Shown: positions 3,125 through 25,534, counted from the first letter of the stretch. The stretch is DNA of 64,000 nucleotides from Cytophagaceae bacterium (GCA_031420365.1 JANOMP010000343.1:4386-68385), one strand, 5' to 3'. Numbers and translations: made by a program. The notes: generated from the letters alone by a model not told the origin.

Positions 3125-4132
3125 ATGCCCAAAATTGTCACTTTCGGAGAAATTTTAATGCGACTTTCCACACCTGGATTTCAAAAAATATCCCAAGCTG
3201 AAACTTTTGACTGCACTTTTGGCGGTACTGAAATGAATGTGGCCGCAGCATTGGTAAATTTTGGTTTTGAAGCAACTCATGTGGGAGTTTTCCCCGACAA
3301 TTCCATAGGTAAAAAAGCTAAGGCATTTATTAGAAAACTAGGTATTTCTGATAAAGAGATAGTTTTAAATGGCAAACGAATGGGATTGTTTTTTTTAGAA
3401 ACAGGTGCGGTAAGTAGAGCAAGTCAAATTGTTTATGATAGAGCAGATTCTGCTTTTGCCAATCTCAACCCATCGTGGTTTGATTGGAATGAGATTTTGA
3501 AAGATGCAGATTGGTTCCATTGGTGTGGCATAACTCCAGCTGTGGGCGAAGCCCCTGCAAAAGCTTTGCTTGAAGCACTAAAAGTGGCTAAAAAACTTGG
3601 GATAAAGGTATCTTCTGATATTTATTATAGGAGCAATCTCTGGAACTATGGTAAAACTCCTCAAGAAATATTGCCTGAATTAGCCTCATATTCTAATGTA
3701 ATTTTGGCAAGTAGGAAAAATATTGAGGAAATTTTCGGAATTAGTTCAGAAGAGGAAAAAGGAAAGTTTCAAGACACCTGCAAAAAACTGATGGAACATT
3801 ATCATAACATAGAAAAGGTAATAGACACCGAACGTATTCAGATCTCTGCTTCGCATAACCGCATGAATGCCAGGATGTTTACTAAAGAAGAATATTTTAA
3901 AACAGGAAATTTAGATATTACACACATAGTGGACAGAGTGGGAACAGGCGATGCATTTTTGGGTGGATTTATTTACGGGCAGTTGGTGTATGGCGACAAT
4001 TTAAAATCTCTAGAGTTTGGCAACGCATCTAGTGCATTAAAACATACTATACCCGGGGACCAAAATTTAGTAGATGTGGCCGAGATAGAAAATTTGATGC
4101 TTGGCGATATGAGTGGTAAATTAAAAAGATAA
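3125..4132 (+). CDS. kdgK: 2-dehydro-3-deoxygluconokinase (PfkB family sugar kinase)
   Basis: PfkB motifs (N-terminal GEILMRL, C-terminal DRVGTGDAF) and position directly downstream of uxuA. Start at ATG 3125. Confidence 0.75.
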   Translation: MPKIVTFGEILMRLSTPGFQKISQAETFDCTFGGTEMNVAAALVNFGFEATHVGVFPDNSIGKKAKAFIRKLGISDKEIVLNGKRMGLFFLETGAVSRASQIVYDRADSAFANLNPSWFDWNEILKDADWFHWCGITPAVGEAPAKALLEALKVAKKLGIKVSSDIYYRSNLWNYGKTPQEILPELASYSNVILASRKNIEEIFGISSEEEKGKFQDTCKKLMEHYHNIEKVIDTERIQISASHNRMNARMFTKEEYFKTGNLDITHIVDRVGTGDAFLGGFIYGQLVYGDNLKSLEFGNASSALKHTIPGDQNLVDVAEIENLMLGDMSGKLKR

Positions 4133-4203: not shown

Positions 4204-4848
4204 CTAAAACTCAATTCTAAATGCATAGTTTGAGGGTACATTTAGATATGAATTTCTATTAATTGGATTATTTTTTAAGTCTAAATATTTTAAACTTTTT
4301 AAGTTTTTAACCTCTTTTGGAACATATCTTAGGAGATTACCACTCAAATACAAATTTTCTAAGAATTTTAGTTGATTAATACTTTCTGGTATTCGTACTA
4401 TCTTATCGTTTTCTAAATGCAGCGTCTTCAACCTTGGAAGTTTAGATAAAATTTTTAGATTCTCATCTAAGGCTATATTTGATTCGTTGTCTAAAAAAAG
4501 TTCTTTCAAGTTTTCTAAATTAGAGAAATTTACTGGCAAAACATTGAAATCATTGCCACCCAAATCTAATACCTCTAATTTTTTTAGACTAAAAATCTCT
4601 TCTGGAATTAACTTTAGATGATCGTTTCTAATACTCAAATACCTAAGATTTTTAAATTTATCTATACCTATTGGAAAATTCTCGAAATGTTGTTGACTTA
4701 AATTTAACCTTTTTACTTTTTCAGGCTCTTTTAACGCCAATTTAATATCGGTATATTCAATCTCTTGAGAAGTGGGCACTTCTATTTGAGCTTGTAGAAA
4801 ACCGCATGAAAAAATCCAAAATAAAAATGCCCAGCTAATTATTTTCAT
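4204..4848 (-). CDS. Leucine-rich repeat (LRR) protein with signal peptide
   Basis: Repeated LxxLxLxxNxL units (LRYLSIRNDHLKLIP, LEVLDLGGNDFNVLP, LKELFLDN, LKTLHLENDKIVRIP, LENLYLSGNLLRYVP, LKYLDLKNNPI). N-terminus MKIISWAFLFWIFSCGF. Confidence 0.8.
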   Translation of the reverse strand: MKIISWAFLFWIFSCGFLQAQIEVPTSQEIEYTDIKLALKEPEKVKRLNLSQQHFENFPIGIDKFKNLRYLSIRNDHLKLIPEEIFSLKKLEVLDLGGNDFNVLPVNFSNLENLKELFLDNESNIALDENLKILSKLPRLKTLHLENDKIVRIPESINQLKFLENLYLSGNLLRYVPKEVKNLKSLKYLDLKNNPINRNSYLNVPSNYAFRIEF

Positions 4849-17351: not shown

Positions 17352-18029
17352 ATGAAAATACTTTTGGCAGAAGATGACCACAATTTAGGAACATTATTGC
17401 ATGAATATCTGGAGGCTAAGGGCTATGAGGTTATGCTTGCAAAAGATGGGAATGAAGGATTAGATCTATTTTTAAAACACGAATTTGATTTTTGCATTTT
17501 AGATGTAATGATGCCCAAAAAAGACGGATTTGCCTTGGCAAAGGAAATAAAAACCAAAAACTCAGAGATTCCATTAATTTTTTTAACTGCAAAGTCAATG
17601 CAAGATGACACCTTGAAAGGCTTTGAACTTGGGGCGGACGACTACATTACCAAACCGTTTAGTATGGAAGAACTTTTAGTGAGAATAAAAGCAATTCTGA
17701 AACGAACCAAAAAAATGGAAACCGAAGTTGTGGCTGGTCAATATAAGATAGGAAATTACGATTTTTTCCCAAATCAACACGAATTGCAAGCCAATGGTGT
17801 TATTCAAAAACTAACAACCAAAGAGTCAGATTTACTTTTACTTTTTAGTAAAAATTCAAACCGAGTAGTAAGTCGAAGCTATGCATTAAAACTTATCTGG
17901 GGAGACGATTCTTATTTTAATGCCCGTAGCATGGATGTTTATATTACGAAGCTTCGAAAATTTCTAAAGTCTGACCCCAGTATTCAAATCATGAATTTAC
18001 ATGGGGAAGGTTTTAAGCTGGTGTGTTGA
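17352..18029 (+). CDS. OmpR-family response regulator
   Basis: Receiver domain (ILLAEDD, DFCILDVMMPKKDG, LTAKS) plus a winged-helix domain. Confidence 0.92.
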   Translation: MKILLAEDDHNLGTLLHEYLEAKGYEVMLAKDGNEGLDLFLKHEFDFCILDVMMPKKDGFALAKEIKTKNSEIPLIFLTAKSMQDDTLKGFELGADDYITKPFSMEELLVRIKAILKRTKKMETEVVAGQYKIGNYDFFPNQHELQANGVIQKLTTKESDLLLLFSKNSNRVVSRSYALKLIWGDDSYFNARSMDVYITKLRKFLKSDPSIQIMNLHGEGFKLVC

Positions 18030-18393
18030 AGTTTTGGTTTTTCAAGTAGGATATTTGTTCTTTTAACAATTGAATCTCATTTTCTTTAGCATTCAACAAT
18101 TTCTCAAAAAGAGATTCCAATTTTTCGTTTAAGTTTGTTTCATTTATTTTGTTGCCATTTTCCATTGTGTTAGTCTCTTGGATAATCGCATTTTCTTTGG
18201 GACTAAACAATTCAGAAATATCAATCTCTAAAAATTTGACGAGTTTTTCCAAAAACTGAGGTTTAAAAGTTGTTACTTTGCCATTTTCAATACGGTTTAA
18301 AGTGGAGAGATCTATATCCAAGGCAAATGCCAAACCTTTGGCCGTAATGCCTCTCTTTTCTCTAAATAGTCTTATTTTTTCTCCAAAAATCAT
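18013..18393 (-). CDS. XRE-family HTH transcriptional regulator with coiled-coil C-terminus
   Basis: MIFGEKIRLFREKRGITAKGLAFALDIDLSTLNRIENGK is a classic Cro/C1 HTH. The C-terminus LESLFEKLLNAKENEIQLLKEQISYLK is heptad-like. Start set at ATG 18393, because the upstream TTG extension only translates the tandem repeat. Confidence 0.85.
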   Translation of the reverse strand: MIFGEKIRLFREKRGITAKGLAFALDIDLSTLNRIENGKVTTFKPQFLEKLVKFLEIDISELFSPKENAIIQETNTMENGNKINETNLNEKLESLFEKLLNAKENEIQLLKEQISYLKNQNFNTPA

Positions 18394-18395
18394 GT

Positions 18396-18427
18396 GTGAA
18401 ATTGTGAAATTGTGAAATTGTGAAATT
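18396..18427. repeat. Perfect tandem repeat (GTGAAATT)x4
   Basis: Read directly. It lies immediately 5' of the XRE ATG on the minus strand. Confidence 0.95.
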
Positions 18428-18533
18428 TCCAAAAACTTGTGCGAAATCTACAATTTATTGTTCAGAATTTTCAAACAATTTTACAAAAAATTAAAGAATT
18501 TTGATTCATCAGCTGATAACAGTGGGGGAAAAA

Positions 18534-18649
18534 ACCAACAGCCACTTTAAATTTCTGTAGGTTATAAACAAATTTTAAATTTAAATTGCATGAAAAAAGT
18601 ATTTTTGTCCGTTGTGTTAATGTTTTTTGTTTCGTTTGCTTTTGCAGAA
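18534..18649 (+). repeat. Copy 1 of the 116-bp conserved module (56-nt 5' leader plus 60-nt signal-peptide coding)
   Basis: Manual alignment with 19781-19896 and 21409-21524 shows 6-9 mismatches per 116 nt. Confidence 0.9.
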
Positions 18650-18895
18650 AATCGGGCAATTTCAAATCCAAAAAATTTCACGAGTAAAGAAGAAAAAATT
18701 GGTTTACAATTACTTGAAAATTCTACTAGGTGTTTGCAATTGTGGTTTTGCCTCAATTTATCTTGCCGTGATATTTGTATACCTATTGATCAGGAATCCG
18801 ATCTTCCTAGTACTTTAGCCGAGTTTAATAGCATTATGTATGATTGGGAAGTTGCTGCGTGCGATTATGATGATGGTTGGGGAGATAGACCATAA
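18590..18895 (+). CDS. Small secreted Cys-framework protein A (101 aa precursor)
   Basis: Sec signal MKKVFLSVVLMFFVSFAFA|EN. The mature part carries C-x4-C-x3-C-x27-C. Confidence 0.7.
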   Translation: MKKVFLSVVLMFFVSFAFAENRAISNPKNFTSKEEKIGLQLLENSTRCLQLWFCLNLSCRDICIPIDQESDLPSTLAEFNSIMYDWEVAACDYDDGWGDRP

Positions 18896-18972
18896 TCACC
18901 AGAAATAAAATAATAAGATTATAAAGCCTTAGAGAGTAAAGTAAACTTGAAATAATTCAATAACCAATACAA

Positions 18973-19776
18973 ATGACCTATTACACAAGACCTTTTTTTT
19001 TGCTTTTATTTTTTAATGTTGCTTGGGGCCAGACCCTTAAGGCAACTTATAGCTTAGATTTCATTTTTAACGAAAAAACTCCTCATAAAATATCAAAAGA
19101 AAAGTTTTCATTACTTATCTACGATACAAGTGAATCGGTATTTTTAAGCACCCCTGCATTGCATAATGATTCTCTTTTGAAAAGCATGGAAAACCTTCCC
19201 TACAGTAAAAATGGTATTTCCAATATTAAAAGTCCTTTGATAAAAACCCATTTTCAAACAATTATAACTAAAAATTATACAAATAAATTAGTCAAAGTTT
19301 ATGATACTATTTTTACGTTGAAAGGAAATTATTTATTCAATGAGAAATTAAATTGGGAAATAAAAGATAGCACAGCCAAAATTGGAGAATATAATTGCAT
19401 TTTAGCACAGGTATTTTATGCAGGTAGAAATTATGAGGCTTGGTTTACTGATGAAATTCCAATTTCGGATGGCCCCTATTTGTTTTCCGGTTTACCAGGC
19501 CTTATCGTTGAAGTATCAGATGCAAGAAAAAATTATCATTTTAAATTGCTATCATTTGAAAAAAATAATTCAAAAAAAATCAATCATTTTTATATTTCAA
19601 AAAAATCAATTCAATTTGATAGAACTGAATTTCTAAATCTCCGTCTTAGCCATCATAATGACCCAATAGGATTTATGGCAAATACATTGAATATTAAAGG
19701 TCTGGATGAAGATGTACAATCTGATATTAAAAAAAATATAAGTAAACGTAACAATTTCATGGAGTTGAATTGGTGA
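18973..19776 (+). CDS. GLPGLI-family protein A
   Basis: Signal peptide and the motif WFTDEIPISDGPYLFSGLPGLIVEVSD. Confidence 0.85.
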   Translation: MTYYTRPFFLLLFFNVAWGQTLKATYSLDFIFNEKTPHKISKEKFSLLIYDTSESVFLSTPALHNDSLLKSMENLPYSKNGISNIKSPLIKTHFQTIITKNYTNKLVKVYDTIFTLKGNYLFNEKLNWEIKDSTAKIGEYNCILAQVFYAGRNYEAWFTDEIPISDGPYLFSGLPGLIVEVSDARKNYHFKLLSFEKNNSKKINHFYISKKSIQFDRTEFLNLRLSHHNDPIGFMANTLNIKGLDEDVQSDIKKNISKRNNFMELNW

Positions 19777-19780
19777 AAAG

Positions 19781-19896
19781 ACCAACAGCCACTTTAAATT
19801 TCTGTAGGTTCTAAACAAATTTTAAATTTATATTATATGAAAAAAGTATTTTTGTCCGTTGTGTTAATGTTTTTTGTTTCATTTGCTTTTGCAGAG
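19781..19896 (+). repeat. Copy 2 of the 116-bp conserved module
   Basis: Starts 2 nt after the GLPGLI-A stop codon. 6/116 mismatches versus copy 1. Confidence 0.9.
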
Positions 19897-20142
19897 GAAA
19901 TAGTAGTAGAGAAAGTTTCTATCGATAAAAACTTACATAAAGAAGGTTTGGTTTTAAATGCATCAAACGAGAATTCAAAATGCGTTCAAAAGGCCGGGAC
20001 AAATTCTTTAGAAATAGTTACCGTAAATGAAACTGAATGCTTTATATTGAGTTGCAGAGTAGTTTGTTTTGAGGTGGATCGTTTAGTGACTGCAGATGAA
20101 GTTGAAGCTATATATGATCATTTAGACTACATTTTTTGTTAA
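19837..20142 (+). CDS. Small secreted Cys-framework protein B (101 aa precursor)
   Basis: MKKVFLSVVLMFFVSFAFA|EE. The mature part carries C-x4-C-x3-C-x23-C. Confidence 0.7.
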   Translation: MKKVFLSVVLMFFVSFAFAEEIVVEKVSIDKNLHKEGLVLNASNENSKCVQKAGTNSLEIVTVNETECFILSCRVVCFEVDRLVTADEVEAIYDHLDYIFC

Positions 20143-20178
20143 CTTCTTAATCTGCTAGTTCTCTTACATAAATAGTTC

Positions 20179-20221
20179 TTTTGCAACATTAGCGGCATTA
20201 ATACCTGTTAGTGTTGCAAAA
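20179..20221 (+). promoter_or_regulatory. Intercistronic stem-loop (10-bp perfect stem, 23-nt loop) between small gene B and GLPGLI B
   Basis: TTTTGCAACA (20179-20188) pairs with TGTTGCAAAA (20212-20221). There is no T-run after it. Confidence 0.45.
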
Positions 20222-20233
20222 TTTCACACTTAA

Positions 20234-21031
20234 ATGATGAAAAAAAATTATCTCTTTTTGCTTCTTTCTTTACCTTTATCTGCATTTTCTCAGTTTTTCG
20301 AGGCAAAATACGTGGTCAGGTTTAGAGCTAACTTGAACAATGAATCCTTTTCGGAAGAAAATTGTCATTTATTGATAAATAAGTCAACAAACAACTCTTA
20401 CTTTTTTTCAGAAAATTTTTACAAAAAAGATTCCATTGGAAATTTAATTTCAAAAAATAGGCTGTATCGCGATCCTTCAATGCAAGATCCAAACCTTAGA
20501 TTGAAAACGATGTTCTATTTTTTAATTAATAAGGATTTTGAAAAAAAAGAAATAATAACGAATGAAAGAATAGTCACTAAAATTTATACTTATCCACAGG
20601 AGATGAAGTTAAAATGGGAAATGAGTGACGACACATTAACGATAGATAATTATATCTGTCAAAAAGCAACATTAGATTTTGAAGGAAGATCCTATTCTTG
20701 TTGGTTTACTACCGAAATTGCTATCTCCGATGGCCCTTTCAAGTTCTGCGGGTTACCAGGACTCATTTTAGAAATTTCAGATACTGAGAAGCATTATAAT
20801 TTCAAAATGGTGAGTTTCCAAAAAATACAAGAAATCAAATTCAAAAAAATATATAATCAAGAAAAATCAATGGAGGTTTCATTTAACAATTTTAGGAAAA
20901 TCATCAAAGATCACAATGGAAATCCTTCTTTAGCGCTTATGGACGCAGGCTTAAAATTAACAGATGAGCAACTTAAAATGATTAATTTTGAAACAAATAG
21001 AAAGAAATCAAATCCAATTGAAAGACTTTAG
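20234..21031 (+). CDS. GLPGLI-family protein B
   Basis: Signal peptide and the motif WFTTEIAISDGPFKFCGLPGLILEISD. Confidence 0.85.
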   Translation: MMKKNYLFLLLSLPLSAFSQFFEAKYVVRFRANLNNESFSEENCHLLINKSTNNSYFFSENFYKKDSIGNLISKNRLYRDPSMQDPNLRLKTMFYFLINKDFEKKEIITNERIVTKIYTYPQEMKLKWEMSDDTLTIDNYICQKATLDFEGRSYSCWFTTEIAISDGPFKFCGLPGLILEISDTEKHYNFKMVSFQKIQEIKFKKIYNQEKSMEVSFNNFRKIIKDHNGNPSLALMDAGLKLTDEQLKMINFETNRKKSNPIERL

Positions 21032-21077
21032 AATTATCTAAATTCTGAAAATCTAAATAAAAATACATTTCGGCACA

Positions 21078-21284
21078 TTAAGAAAATAGCAACAAACCTA
21101 CTTTATTTTCATTTTTAAAATTGACGAACTTTCCCATAATATAAACTGAGGTATAAAAGTAGCTACCTTGCCATTTTCTGGTTAGTTTAAAAGGGAGAGA
21201 ATTGTATCTAAAGCAGATGCTAAAGTTTTTGTAGTAATGCCTCTCATAATCTTTAAATAGACTTGTTTTTTCTCTAAATATCAT
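21078..21284 (-). pseudogene. Decayed duplicate of the XRE regulator gene (5' part only, HTH out of frame)
   Basis: The nucleotide sequence is alignable to 18230-18393. It shares MIFxEKxxLF and ends back in frame (KFVNF versus KLVKF). The approximately 40 codons that encode the HTH in the intact copy are read in a shifted frame, and the coiled-coil part is absent. Confidence 0.6.
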
Positions 21285-21408
21285 TTTTAAAATTGTGAAA
21301 TTTTCAAAAACTTGTGCGAAATCTACAATTTATTATGTAGAATTTCCAAACAATTTTACCAAATATTAAAGAATTTTGAATCATCAGCTGATAACAGTGA
21401 GGGAAAAG

Positions 21409-21524
21409 ACCAACAGCCACTTTAAATTTCTGTAGGCTCTAAACAAATTTTAAATTTATATTTTATGAAAAAAGTATTTTTGTCCGTTGTCTTAATGTTT
21501 TTTGTTTCTATTGCGTTTGCAGAA
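21409..21524 (+). repeat. Copy 3 of the 116-bp conserved module
   Basis: 7/116 mismatches versus copy 2 and 9/116 versus copy 1. Similarity to copy 1 extends upstream through 21285-21408 into the XRE pseudogene. Confidence 0.9.
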
Positions 21525-21755
21525 GTGTCTGGAAGTAAAAAGAATTCTTTAAGAAAGACTGCTTTTATAAAAAAAGTTAAAAATTCTAATCAAAAAATTA
21601 GAACCCAACCCAAGCCAGTTTTAATGACTTGTTTTTCGTCTTCATGTATAACGTCTTGTGACCCTTCAGATACAGAATACTCTAATACTGCTATTGTTGT
21701 GATACTTGTAAGGTTAGAAAAATATTGTGATTCGATTACGTATAACTACATGTAG
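21465..21755 (+). CDS. Small secreted Cys-framework protein C (96 aa precursor)
   Basis: MKKVFLSVVLMFFVSIAFA|EV. The mature part carries C-x4-C-x3-C-x22-C. Confidence 0.7.
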   Translation: MKKVFLSVVLMFFVSIAFAEVSGSKKNSLRKTAFIKKVKNSNQKIRTQPKPVLMTCFSSSCITSCDPSDTEYSNTAIVVILVRLEKYCDSITYNYM

Positions 21756-21756
21756 G

Positions 21757-21797
21757 AATATGACCCCTCACGTTTTGTAGGGGTCATATTTTTTTTA
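21757..21797 (+). terminator. Strong intrinsic terminator 2 nt after the stop of small gene C
   Basis: 12-bp perfect stem AATATGACCCCT/AGGGGTCATATT with a 10-nt loop, followed by a T-run. Confidence 0.75.
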
Positions 21798-21825
21798 TTG
21801 TTAATTGTTAAATCAACCTAAACAC

Positions 21826-22626
21826 ATGAAAAATATAAAATTACTAATATTTTTGCAAGTTGTACCAATAGCATTATTTTCTCAAAATTTTAAATTTACA
21901 TATGAATTAAGGGCAACACCATTTATTCAAAATTCTTCCAATATCATAAATGAAATTGGCTATTTACATATTAATAAAAATATAAATTCATACTTTTTTT
22001 CAGAGAAGTTTTTGAAAATAGATTCGGCTTATAGAATACTTGATGAACAAAATGTATCACCTTATTCAGCTTTAGAAAACTTTAGCAAATTCAATGCAAA
22101 TTACTTTTTTAAAGAATTTATTGTAAAAAATTATCAAGATTCAAAAATAGAAATTTTTAGAGAATTAGGTATTGAACATTTCAAGTATCAAGTAAAAAGC
22201 GTCTTTCAGTGGGAAGTAAAAAATGAAATTGATACTTTAAACAATTTGATATGCCAAAAAGCGGTTACGACTTATTCAGGGAGGGAATATGTAGCTTGGT
22301 TTACAACAGAATTTCCATTTTCAGACGGCCCGTATGTGTTCAATGGCTTGCCTGGTTTAATTGTTAAAATTGCCGATACAAAAAACCTATTTCAATTTAA
22401 ATTAATTCACTACGAAAAAGAACCAGCATCGTTTATCCTTAAACCATTCAAATACTCAAAGGCACTTCAAATTTCTTTAAAGGATTTTATTAGTTTAAGA
22501 ATTGATTTAACAAACGACCCACTTAAACAATTCATAGATGCTGGTTTCACAATAAAGGATTCTAGAATTCCAGATATGTCGAAGACAAAAATGTCAGATA
22601 AAATAAATTACATTGAAATTGAATAA
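21826..22626 (+). CDS. GLPGLI-family protein C
   Basis: Signal peptide MKNIKLLIFLQVVPIALFSQ and the motif WFTTEFPFSDGPYVFNGLPGLIVKIAD. Start at ATG 21826. Confidence 0.85.
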   Translation: MKNIKLLIFLQVVPIALFSQNFKFTYELRATPFIQNSSNIINEIGYLHINKNINSYFFSEKFLKIDSAYRILDEQNVSPYSALENFSKFNANYFFKEFIVKNYQDSKIEIFRELGIEHFKYQVKSVFQWEVKNEIDTLNNLICQKAVTTYSGREYVAWFTTEFPFSDGPYVFNGLPGLIVKIADTKNLFQFKLIHYEKEPASFILKPFKYSKALQISLKDFISLRIDLTNDPLKQFIDAGFTIKDSRIPDMSKTKMSDKINYIEIE

Positions 22627-22879
22627 ATTGTTGTAATTACTTTCAATTTAGGAATGGTAAATTAATTTGCTCAATTCAATTTTGATTTATAAGAGTTTTT
22701 GAAAAGAAAAAGTTGAAAATGAAAGAAAAAGTTAATTTACAAACACGGCAAATGTCTTGAGGTTAATAAATTTAATTTTAAAGGGCAATAAAAATAAAAC
22801 TAAAAATTGTTTTTTTGGTCTCCAAACCATATCAATTTTGTTCGAAATTACCTATTTGCAAATAGTTGTGAAATTTTTA

Positions 22880-25534
22880 ATGAGTAAAATAACATTTTTT
22901 CGGATAATATTGGTCTTTTTTTGCTTTTTAAAAATGGAAGCTTCTTTTTCACAAATACTAATTTCAGGCAAATTGAGTGAAAAAAGCACAAAAATTCCAA
23001 TTCAAAATGCAAATATTACAATAAAAAAAATAAACTCTAAGGCAATCCTATTCTTCGGATTTTCAGATAAAAAAGGTAATTTTTTAATCGAATCAAATAT
23101 CGATTCAGATTCAGTACAACTGCATATTGGAATAATGGGGTATGCTCCCTTAGTTCTAAACCTTCTAAATTACTCTCAAAGACTTGATTTGCAACTAGAG
23201 CAAGCCGTCATTGAACTTAAAGAACTAAATATAAAACAAGAACCCATCCGTAAATTTGGTGATACGCTAAGCTATGCTATTGGCGAGTTTAAAGACAAAA
23301 ATGATCGAGTACTCGCTGATGTTTTGAAAAGACTGCCAGGCATAGAAGTTGAACCCAATGGCAGAATACTGTATCAGGGCGAACCGATAAATAAGTATTA
23401 TATTGAGGGTTTAGATCTTCTGAATGGTCGATATAAATTAGCAAACGATAACCTAAACATAGACGCTGTGCAAAGTGTAGAGGTGCTTGAAAACCATCAG
23501 CCTATCCGAATGCTGGATAGCACCGTGTTTTCTGATAAAGCCGCAATAAATATTAGGCTTAAAAAAGCAGTTACGAATTCTGGGCAGATAAATTTGGGTC
23601 TAGGTTCAACACCTTTACTTTGGGATATAAATTTAACTCCTATGTTGTTTTCAAAAAAGCTCCAAATGATTTCTACATTTCAGGGCAACAATACAGGCAA
23701 AAATAGTTCTAGTCAACTTATGCAACTTACCCCAGGCACTGTTTTTAGTGATTTAGAGGCCCGCAATAGCGATTGGGTAGGAATTCAACAGCTTTCTAGC
23801 CCCGCCTTTAAAGAAATCAGATGGCTTGATAATAATGTCAAAATAGGGTCAATGAATTTTTTAAAAAAATTAAAAGATGGCCTTGAGTTACGTTTTATAA
23901 GCGATTTTTCAAGTGATATCCAACTTCAAAATGGATCCACCAAAACTACTTTTTTTGATTCCGACAAAGAAAACATTCAACTTTTAGAAACAAAAAGAAA
24001 CAGATTGGGATTTAATTCTTCTAAAACTAGTCTTACGATACAAAAAAATACCAATGATAGGTATTTAAAAAACAGCCTTAAAATAAATGGAATTTGGAAT
24101 AATCAATTGGGGAACATTATTGGTGTTAATGGAGGGTTAAAGCAACAAACAAAACTTCCTGTATTTATTATTTCGAATAGTTATCAAGATTTTTTTAAAA
24201 TAAATAAGACGATTCTTACGCTAAATTCTTCCTCAGGTTTTGAAAATGTAAATCAGTCGTTGTCAATTTCTCCAAGCATTTTTATTGAACTATTTGGCTT
24301 GAGCAAGGCAACAGAATCTGTTCAGCAAAATGTCCAAAAAGACAAAATGTTCACTCAGAATTCTATTCAGTTTATAAAGAAAGTAAAAAAGATTTCTGTA
24401 GAGACCAGCGTAGGTTTTGATCTAAACAAAGAGGTCCTTAGGAGTGGGATAGCACTTGATTTTCCTAACGAACGGACAGTTTTAGGGCAAGATTTTAATA
24501 ACAACCTAAAATGGAGCGAACAAAAATATTACGTAAAATTAATAAATAGATTAAATCACCAAGAATGGAAAATAGCTATTACTACTCCAATTAGCTTCAA
24601 TTCATTTTTTGCTCTTGACGGTGATTTTAAAAAACAACAAACCCTAAAAACATTTGTTTTTGAACCCAGAATTAGCTTAAATCGAGAAATAAAAAATTTC
24701 TGGACATTTAATATAAACATGGGAAAAAGTAATAGGTTTGGAGATATTAACCAAATGTATTTTGGATACATTTTGAACAATTATAGAGATATAAAAAGAT
24801 TCAATGCTCCAGTTCTACAAAGTGTAAACTATTCGGGCAATATAGGATTAAACTATAGAAATCCTGTAAAAAGTACTTTTGGTTCTGTTTCATTTGCTAA
24901 CGGAAAAACCATTTCGAATTTAATCTATACTAACATAATAAATACCAACGGCAGCATTGAAAGAAATGCCTTAGAAAAAAATAATGAAGGATTTTCTCAA
25001 AATTGGAACGGACGAATTGGAAAATATTTTAGAATAATAAAAACTACATTTACGGTAAGAAATAGTGTTTTTTCGCAAAAAGGGGTTCAGGTCATTAATG
25101 AGAATGAGACTTTGGTAAAAACACAAGGAATGAAACCTAGCATTGATGTTACCTCTACTTTGAGCCCTTGGTTTAGTTTTTATTATAATTATAGTTTTTC
25201 GAGCTTTAGAAATAAAGTGGGCCGCGAAATTCGACCAAATGTTGTGCAGGAATCTCAGTTTTTAAACTTAAACTGTTTTACTAAAAATAATTTTAATTTT
25301 AGTGTAAACAATGAAATTTATATCAATAATTTTAATAATCAAAAAAACATATTTACTGATTTTTCTCTAAGAAAAACTATTGGCAAAAGGAAAATTGACT
25401 TAGAAGCCAATTATACAAATATTTTTAATTCAAATACATTACTAACTGTAAGTTCTGGTACATTTTCTTACATCGAAACAGCCTATTTGTTAAGACCCAG
25501 ACAAGCCGTGTTTAAAATTAGGTTTTCTTACTAA
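22880..25534 (+). CDS. Outer-membrane beta-barrel protein with CarboxypepD_reg-like N-domain and plug-like segment (TonB-dependent-receptor-like)
   Basis: Signal peptide MSKITFFRIILVFFCFLKMEASFSQ. ILISGKL...ANITIKK...DKKGNF resembles the CarboxypepD_reg fold. LADVLKRLPGIEVEPNGRILYQGEPI is plug-like. The remainder is a long beta-rich region ending in FKIRFSY. Confidence 0.8.
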   Translation: MSKITFFRIILVFFCFLKMEASFSQILISGKLSEKSTKIPIQNANITIKKINSKAILFFGFSDKKGNFLIESNIDSDSVQLHIGIMGYAPLVLNLLNYSQRLDLQLEQAVIELKELNIKQEPIRKFGDTLSYAIGEFKDKNDRVLADVLKRLPGIEVEPNGRILYQGEPINKYYIEGLDLLNGRYKLANDNLNIDAVQSVEVLENHQPIRMLDSTVFSDKAAINIRLKKAVTNSGQINLGLGSTPLLWDINLTPMLFSKKLQMISTFQGNNTGKNSSSQLMQLTPGTVFSDLEARNSDWVGIQQLSSPAFKEIRWLDNNVKIGSMNFLKKLKDGLELRFISDFSSDIQLQNGSTKTTFFDSDKENIQLLETKRNRLGFNSSKTSLTIQKNTNDRYLKNSLKINGIWNNQLGNIIGVNGGLKQQTKLPVFIISNSYQDFFKINKTILTLNSSSGFENVNQSLSISPSIFIELFGLSKATESVQQNVQKDKMFTQNSIQFIKKVKKISVETSVGFDLNKEVLRSGIALDFPNERTVLGQDFNNNLKWSEQKYYVKLINRLNHQEWKIAITTPISFNSFFALDGDFKKQQTLKTFVFEPRISLNREIKNFWTFNINMGKSNRFGDINQMYFGYILNNYRDIKRFNAPVLQSVNYSGNIGLNYRNPVKSTFGSVSFANGKTISNLIYTNIINTNGSIERNALEKNNEGFSQNWNGRIGKYFRIIKTTFTVRNSVFSQKGVQVINENETLVKTQGMKPSIDVTSTLSPWFSFYYNYSFSSFRNKVGREIRPNVVQESQFLNLNCFTKNNFNFSVNNEIYINNFNNQKNIFTDFSLRKTIGKRKIDLEANYTNIFNSNTLLTVSSGTFSYIETAYLLRPRQAVFKIRFSY

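Follow-up and report, generated by a model that had tools for sequence, protein, structure and literature searches.

Within a 64,000-nucleotide stretch of Cytophagaceae bacterium DNA (GCA_031420365.1 JANOMP010000343.1:4386-68385, hereafter the window), three tandem pairs of genes are each headed by a near-identical leader module and are followed by one gene for an outer-membrane protein. Each pair consists of a gene for a small secreted four-cysteine protein (A, B, or C) and a gene for a GLPGLI family protein (GLPGLI-1, GLPGLI-2, or GLPGLI-3), so that what is repeated is a cassette of two genes. The module is probably a shared front end on three ancient two-gene cassettes that has been kept uniform by DNA-level copying and that also serves as a crossover point. 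The repeat itself, a step-like boundary at its 3' edge, a discordance in age between modules and cassettes, a pseudogene fossil upstream of copy C, and a recombinant arrangement in a related strain were all observed. Positions are counted from the first letter of the window, and features lie on the plus strand unless stated otherwise.

Exact and near-exact searches of the window located the module at 18534-18649 (A), 19781-19896 (B), and 21409-21524 (C) only. A 44-nucleotide (nt) probe for the coding core matched at 18590, 19837, and 21465 with 0, 0, and 1 mismatches, and a 27-nt probe for the upstream core matched at 18535, 19782, and 21410 with no mismatches. Dinucleotide shuffles gave an expectation of 0.00 matches for both probes, confirming the three near-identical 116-nt copies reported in a preliminary description of this DNA. 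Each module consists of 56-60 nt 5' of the ATG and 20 signal-peptide codons (116-122 nt in total). Copy A comprises 56 nt upstream of the ATG plus the 20 codons; copy B starts at the stop codon of GLPGLI-1 and spans 19775-19896. Over 116 nt, 6 differences were counted between A and B, 9 between A and C, and 7 between B and C, which agrees with the earlier manual count of 6-9, and pairwise identity among the modules within the genome was about 91.5-95%. Several of these differences had been described as synonymous; both of the coding differences between A and B are, as are three of the four between A and C.

Identity was then followed across the 3' edge of the module using 20-nt windows anchored on the ATG. 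From -60 to +59, 17-20 of 20 positions were identical in all three pairs, and from +60 on the count was 4-9 of 20, again in all three pairs, which is the background for DNA of 32% G+C. Identity falls to background within at most one codon of the predicted AFA|E cleavage site, so that the sharp collapse proposed earlier was reproduced as a step rather than a gradual decay. The mature parts had also been called unalignable, and this holds for the DNA. As proteins, however, mature A, B, and C share a C-x4-S-C-x3-C motif, followed by a helix and then a last cysteine. Neither the homology of the mature domains nor the two-gene repeat unit had been mentioned in the preliminary description.

The cassettes behind these modules are old. 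Their GLPGLI proteins are 29-32% identical in amino acids (aa), and four-fold degenerate sites match at 12 of 42 positions against a random expectation of 31%, compared with 14 of 18 in the leader. A contig from a sister species (L105) carries a single cassette, together with an outer-membrane protein that is 57% identical (aa) to that of the window. The GLPGLI protein of L105 is 44.6% identical to GLPGLI-1 and 28-33% identical to GLPGLI-2 and GLPGLI-3, and the mature part of its small protein shares 41% of residues with A, against 26-33% for B and C. Because the L105 cassette is closest to A, the separation of cassette A from the other two predates the divergence of the species. The module of L105, however, is only 74-77% identical to modules A, B, and C, which are 91.5-94.1% identical among themselves. 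Leader and mature parts therefore have incongruent phylogenies, with modules and cassettes in opposite patterns in the comparison with L105. Grouping of modules by genome and of cassettes by orthology is the classical mark of concerted evolution, and these comparisons show the modules to be much younger than the cassettes. An independent parallel of this leader-only identity is provided by an unrelated Cytophagales metagenome-assembled genome (MAG; L038), in which two tandem small genes match perfectly for ~70 nt, remain 85-95% identical as far as +135, and are unrelated thereafter; the GLPGLI partners of these two genes are 42% identical.

If selection alone were responsible, with the module as old as the cassettes and frozen by purifying selection without copying between paralogs, then orthologs and paralogs should be comparably similar. 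The paralogous modules are 92-94% identical as against 74-77% for the ortholog in the sister species, and the explanation is therefore disfavored. It would explain why conservation between species is highest in the non-coding DNA and the signal peptide (DNA identity between the window and L105 was 68% in the upstream region, 65% in the 5' part of the module, 83% in the signal-peptide codons, 51% in the mature part, and 57% in the GLPGLI gene), and why signal peptides are alike throughout the small-protein family (MK[NK]LF...F[AS]FA). It does not account for leader synonymous sites that are nearly unchanged, and the pseudogene fossil described next proves that DNA was copied. Selection without copying is thus unlikely.

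The fossil derives from an XRE-family helix-turn-helix (HTH) regulator gene, which lies on the minus strand at 18013-18393, divergent from small gene A (Pfam HTH_3, E = 3e-11; 126 aa in all related contigs). A decayed pseudo-copy of the 5' part of this gene, covering its first ~50 codons, was found on the minus strand at 21125-21284, 5' of module C; it is 74.5% identical to 18235-18393 and has frame-breaking indels. Between pseudogene and module C lies a copy of the A-type upstream regulatory region (21285-21408), recognized by its similarity to the DNA upstream of copy A. The upstream regulatory region proper (18428-18533) is confined to A and C and is 90.6% identical to 21303-21408, and overall the stretch common to A and C extends ~280 nt further upstream (18253-18589 against 21143-21464) at 75-91% identity. 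In this comparison the pseudogene was 74.5% identical, as against 91.4% for the adjoining intergenic region and module (Fisher p = 9e-6). Among strains, the pseudogene was 5-7% divergent compared with 1-2% in adjoining genes and was the fastest-changing stretch. Since the pseudogene has drifted while the leader and regulatory part have stayed close, the latter has therefore been constrained or has been converted again after copying. The pseudo-regulator 5' of module C is direct evidence, preserved in sequence, of a DNA-level copying event.

In order to assess the non-coding part of the module, promoter motifs and RNA folding were considered. The consensus of the Bacteroidetes -7 promoter element is TAnnTTTG, and exact matches to it were found 29-58 nt upstream of other genes in the window. 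The module contains TAAATTTC at -42, and copies A and C are preceded by GAATTTTG at -94, which is retained in the sister species L105. The non-coding part of the module is most likely a core promoter and/or a short 5' untranslated region (UTR). Selection on the nucleic acid itself had been suggested, and this stands insofar as the non-coding part is conserved between species in a promoter- or UTR-like manner; its proposed form as an RNA stem was not supported. A structured cis-regulatory RNA built on the imperfect stem CCAACAG-N13-CTGTAGG is very improbable. The stem is present in all three copies, as described, at -4 to -4.9 kcal/mol, and two A-to-G changes found opposite T in copy A of some strains would preserve G-U pairing, although with about six distinct module sequences they prove nothing. 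Its stability, however, does not exceed that of shuffled sequence: the 59-nt leaders gave z = +0.26, -0.33, and -0.97, copy C favors a different fold, and the whole 116-nt modules were less structured than shuffles (z = +0.4 to +1.3). Low structure of this kind suits a translation start region, which the module contains. The stem region carries indels in L105, and a search of Rfam gave no match at E <= 1 in 17900-23000; across the whole window at gathering thresholds, one tRNA was the only match. The leader RNA stem was rejected on these grounds.

Among strains, a recombinant arrangement was observed at the module. A contig from a divergent strain (L093) carries GLPGLI-1, a single module, the C mature part, GLPGLI-3, and the outer-membrane protein gene, and is without 1628 nt that equal exactly one repeat period (the pseudogene, GLPGLI-2, and the mature part of B). 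As far as -28 the sequence of its module is that of B, and from +44 it is that of C, which places the crossover inside the module. Loss of cassette B is the derived state, because a contig from another divergent strain (L094) retains the order GLPGLI-2, pseudogene, C. Logan short-read contigs of three-cassette strains all end at -58 of the module, and L093 reads through. Divergence along L093 is mosaic: GLPGLI-1 differs by 6-16% and the outer-membrane protein by 4-14%, whereas the stretch that begins at the module and ends with GLPGLI-3 differs by <=1-2%, and the same low-divergence cassette C block occurs in a contig from a different sample (L092). Cassette C is therefore <=1-2% divergent where GLPGLI-1 and the outer-membrane protein are about 5-16% divergent, and the left edge of the block falls within the module. 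This pattern fits recombinational exchange of cassette C, for which the module may have been the left anchor. A CCA[A/G]CAG polymorphism occurs in the A modules of some strains and in the C module of another. Recombination confined to the leader, with the leader as a handle for swapping mature parts, had been one of two explanations offered in the preliminary description, and the discordance of modules and cassettes, the pseudogene, the L093 crossover, and the edge of the low-divergence block all speak for it.

A 674-bp contig from another sample series (L011) carries, at 129-231, the signal-peptide codons and the first ~12 codons of C at 90.7% identity. Both of its flanks are unrelated to the window, the 5' breakpoint lies 4 nt before the ATG, and no cysteine domain follows; the contig may be what is left of a rearrangement, or else a chimera produced in assembly.

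Several points weigh against a copied front end that doubles as a crossover point, or against parts of it. L093 is represented by one contig of 4.3 kb, assembled from short metagenome reads, in which a strain-mixing artefact is conceivable; against such an artefact, its diagnostic variants lie <30 nt apart and it carries private variants. A search with the L093 variant of GLPGLI-1 for a second contig with an A-C junction returned only L093. The ten contigs retrieved through protein A, and both longer contigs retrieved through the variant P0005, all have the same three cassettes, and because nearly all assemblies share this order, rearrangement is rare and not programmed. A cluster of single-nucleotide polymorphisms (SNPs) at 18167-18564, described below, was considered as a conversion tract and set aside: its alleles point both toward and away from copies B and C (for copy C, four of eight toward and three away), which is not a clean pattern. 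Of the -7-like boxes, the one that is conserved best (GAATTTTG, -94) is located beyond the module and has no counterpart at copy B, and a promoter rather than a UTR role for the module is something we infer from sequence.

Programmed switching by a dedicated recombinase acting at the modules, as at Mycoplasma vsa/vsp loci or in shufflons, would draw on the conserved 5' ends, the structural polymorphism at the module, and the hypervariable 8-bp repeat beside the regulator. We regard it as highly improbable, given that all modules are in direct orientation, that almost every assembly has the three cassettes in one fixed order, and that no recombinase or integrase domain was recorded within 10 kb on either side.

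Evolutionary rates were estimated as ratios of nonsynonymous to synonymous substitution rates (dN/dS) between orthologs of divergent strains. Mature A gave 0.76, and mature C had 5-6 nonsynonymous against 0-1 synonymous changes, a ratio above 1 from small counts; protein C occurs in seven variants among strains. The ratio was 0.14-0.19 for the outer-membrane protein, for GLPGLI-1, and, in L092, for GLPGLI-3. The small proteins would, on these small counts, be consistent with relaxed or diversifying evolution, and the raised ratios in the mature parts are in keeping with the earlier analogy to diversifying secreted-peptide families. Recent duplication of the whole cassette, after which all but the leader diverged extremely fast, could appeal to the fast mature small proteins (dN/dS 0.76 to above 1) and yet deserves almost no credence, because the GLPGLI paralogs have reached random identity at four-fold sites, which positive selection cannot produce, and because GLPGLI is under purifying selection (dN/dS ~0.19) and cassette A resembles the cassette of another species more than it does B or C.

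For a module that is a front end copied between old cassettes, the following mechanism is proposed. The module would act as a shared expression-and-export front end, made up of a core promoter and/or 5' UTR and a Sec-type signal peptide, for three anciently diverged cassettes that may feed the single TonB-like outer-membrane protein downstream. It would be copied between cassettes by gene conversion or segmental copying, and its sharp 3' edge would maintain itself if conversion stops where homology stops, at the fast-evolving mature domain. Purifying selection on the promoter or UTR and on the signal peptide would add to its uniformity. As direct repeats, the modules would be places where whole cassettes are deleted (cassette B in L093) and probably exchanged between strains. 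The small proteins would be made abundantly, exported by Sec, cut after AFA, and disulfide-bonded in the periplasm, and they might then serve as exported effectors, signals, or ligands, each together with its specific GLPGLI protein and with the common outer-membrane protein as conduit or receptor. A more elaborate version appears doubtful: a cassette diversity system of abundant, Sec-exported, disulfide-locked small effectors (inter-bacterial toxins or signals), each with a GLPGLI "bowl" as its cognate binding or immunity partner, in which the module is a portable handle of promoter and signal by which strains acquire, lose, or exchange effector and partner cassettes through homologous recombination, and exit or recognition occurs through the TonB-like outer-membrane protein. 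If true, it would provide the first function for the large family of GLPGLI and N-terminal bowl-like (NBL) domain proteins.

The small proteins are encoded at 18590-18895 (A, 101 aa), 19837-20142 (B, 101 aa), and 21465-21755 (C, 96 aa). Their signal peptides are hydrophobic and Sec-like, have no cysteine in the first 20 residues, and are predicted to be cleaved at AFA|E. The family was defined by a Sec-type signal and a C-terminal ~40-aa domain with the pattern C-x4-6-[ST]-C-x3-7-C, a helix, and a last cysteine, and a hidden Markov model (HMM) was built from members in 17 other genomes together with the three window proteins, which it recovered with partly circular scores (E = 1e-8 for A, 2e-8 for B, and 6e-6 for C). 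No Pfam or NCBIfam model matched the three window proteins or seven members from other genomes, and the source names of all family members seen were "hypothetical protein". In an AlphaFold2 (AF2) model of protein B, a signal helix and a disordered spacer are followed by a beta-hairpin (66-79) and a helix (86-100), with a predicted local distance difference test score (pLDDT) of 83-89; a Foldseek search of the PDB with this model gave nothing better than E = 3.6.

In order to determine how widely the small genes and GLPGLI genes occur together, a GLPGLI alignment was scanned against one genome per species (GTDB), which gave 80 loci across Bacteroidota (best GLPGLI match 37%). About 35 of the 80 GLPGLI genes are directly preceded by an open reading frame (ORF) of 58-111 aa with a signal peptide and a C-terminal cysteine domain, and in these loci a CarboxypepD_reg outer-membrane protein of ~880 aa usually follows. 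Examples, from loci L012-L091, are L013 2375-2575, L019 5546-5842, and L020 4753-5019; L147 and L149 are others. Reverse look-ups from two unrelated small proteins (P0033 and P0043) returned the same trio. A profile search of 1.84 billion representative proteins produced 60 matches, nearly all of 59-113 aa with the domain at the C-terminus. Joint Genome Institute (JGI) metagenomes held no matches to a 24-mer and 40 matches to a 20-mer, all of them unrelated proteins starting MKKVFLS. Near a GLPGLI gene in a Bacteroidales MAG (L054), a gene at 4387-4605 encodes a cysteine-rich peptide with a double-glycine leader (MKSLKLNNL...ITGGGSVRVCGCGCC...), so that small peptides of another type also occur in this neighborhood.

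A hairpin separates the small gene from the GLPGLI gene in much of the family (z < -2 in 20 of 26 members, median -3.8). In the window it follows B and C and is not found after A: a stable hairpin occupies the gap between small gene B and GLPGLI-2 (20179-20221; -20.6 kcal/mol, z = -4.0), and a terminator-like hairpin with a T-run follows small gene C (21754-21801; -21 kcal/mol, z = -5.0). A conserved hairpin in this place suggests high expression of the small protein, with more transcript from the small gene than from that of the GLPGLI partner. A sigma-70 promoter and terminator scan was uninformative in this Bacteroidetes genome and missed both real hairpins, whose loops are >8 nt.

The GLPGLI partners (GLPGLI-1 at 18973-19776, GLPGLI-2 at 20234-21031, and GLPGLI-3 at 21826-22626) are 265-267 aa long and have signal peptides of their own; GLPGLI-3 is 266 aa in related contigs. 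With 147.5, 142.5, and 144 bits, all three exceed the curated TIGR01200 cut-off of 50 bits, and the GLPGLI motif is invariant in a three-way alignment (G173 L174 P175 G176 L177 I178). Against PF22252 (PNGase_F-II_N, cut-off 27.6 bits), GLPGLI-2 scored 30.6 bits and GLPGLI-1 25.7 bits, and GLPGLI-3 gave no match; the profile reached only E = 0.82 against PDB 7ZGN. The array is closed by a TonB-dependent-receptor-like outer-membrane protein of ~885 aa (22880-25534), with the likely start MSKITFF... at 22880 lying within a longer mechanical ORF from 22757. It has a CarboxypepD_reg-like domain and a weak Plug match, both at sub-threshold Pfam scores (CarbopepD_reg_2 28.8 against a cut-off of 32.2; Plug 18.6 against 23.9), and no Pfam barrel model and no PDB sequence matched it. 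A poly-T indel at 22804-22810 (region 22757-22934) lies 5' of the likely start and alters the length called for the protein, which is 925, 908, or 866 aa depending on the assembly. This variation is probably an annotation effect; the indel nonetheless lies in the promoter region of the gene.

The intergenic region between the regulator and small gene A contains an 8-bp tandem repeat, (GTGAAATT)x4, at 18396-18427, 2 nt from the regulator start codon. Four copies are present in the window and in five distinct contigs (L001, L002, L004, L007, and L010, with L095 being identical to L001 and not counted again). In assemblies that are otherwise 99.9% identical, three copies were counted in L003, L005, and L009 and five in L008, and the scaffold gap of L006 falls inside the repeat. 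The pseudo-copy of the repeat region before module C (21285-21309) has a single GTGAAATT unit. Slipped-strand changes in the repeat are a candidate for "contingency" switching of either the regulator or gene A. A perfect 10-bp palindrome, ATCAGCTGAT, occurs at 18508-18517 and 21383-21392, 5' of modules A and C and not of B; the XRE regulator may use it as an operator, although its palindromy is not kept in L105. A 37-codon ORF at 18437-18550 (also 21312-21425) was rejected as coding: its 9 nucleotide differences cause 7 amino acid changes and show no preference for any codon position, and in the sister species the reading frame is interrupted. Between the window and most sister assemblies, 8 of ~16-25 SNPs over 20 kb fall in 18167-18564, which covers parts of the regulator, the intergenic region, and module A, and L004 has the allele of the window there. 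The haplotype looks like an imported or balanced regulatory region.

Conserved front ends with variable mature parts are familiar from other systems. The Mycoplasma vsp, vlp, and vsa loci are multigene arrays with a conserved 5' non-coding and signal-peptide region and variable mature parts; they encode repetitive lipoproteins and switch by site-specific inversions or promoter repeats. The window differs in that no recombinase was found in the flanking 10 kb, there are no inverted copies, and homologous recombinations are rare. Conotoxin superfamilies and the double-glycine-leader bacteriocin loci (blp, pln) combine a conserved leader with a hypervariable disulfide-rich peptide and often a partner gene. 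Conotoxins are eukaryotic, and bacteriocin leaders are of the double-glycine (GG) type and are cut by C39 ABC exporters, whereas the window proteins have a classical Sec signal (AFA|E) and a 265-aa GLPGLI partner with its own signal peptide. Hallmarks of ribosomally synthesized and post-translationally modified peptides (RiPPs) or bacteriocins were searched for, and no GG motif was found in the leader and no C39, radical-SAM, or lanthipeptide domains within 10 kb; NCBIfam matches to RiPP models were noise (E >= 0.03).

There is also a likeness, in architecture only, to the Erp or "upstream homology box" family of Borrelia burgdorferi (OspE, OspF, Elp), in which a conserved upstream region and leader peptide precede divergent or unrelated mature parts; this architecture is described in PMC12018966, and titles among the references of PMC12018966 and PMC10016077 concern the upstream homology box that these genes share and their recombination. 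The Borrelia genes encode lipobox-bearing lipoproteins and are dispersed among cp32 prophage plasmids, whereas the window has a non-lipoprotein Sec signal, a tandem chromosomal array, a two-gene unit, and mature parts that are still homologous. The array belongs to none of these families. Concerted evolution of a promoter and signal-peptide front end is thus already familiar from Borrelia and Mycoplasma, and the mechanism is ordinary.

What is new is the trio that recurs across Bacteroidota, with a small component that has no family model and a GLPGLI component that has no assigned function. All three partners clearly belong to the GLPGLI family (TIGR01200, Pfam Porph_ging), and one also exceeds the cut-off of PF22252, the NBL domain of type II PNGase F. 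In the limited GLPGLI literature examined, no function was given for the family, and no description was found of its regular pairing with a small four-cysteine protein and a CarboxypepD_reg outer-membrane protein. Fast-diverging pairs, the hairpin, the recombination-prone leader, and the hypervariable repeat point to a specific pairwise interaction under diversifying pressure, and these features make the GLPGLI question experimentally approachable. For the outer-membrane protein, a TonB-dependent transporter of Myxococcus, Oar, which moves a periplasmic protein outward and is needed for secretion of the protein PopC (PMC6434023), may offer a mechanistic lead on export of the small proteins.

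Two further observations concern the flanks of the array. In L010, positions 679-991 (window 17507-17819) contain 38 differences in ~310 nt of a response-regulator gene, the rest of the contig being near-identical, and the patch is best read as a short recombination import from what would be a divergent lineage. In L105, 51 nt after the outer-membrane gene (4063-4113) match the 3' end of the window response-regulator gene (17900-17950) at 86%, which suggests that gene order around the locus differs in the sister species.

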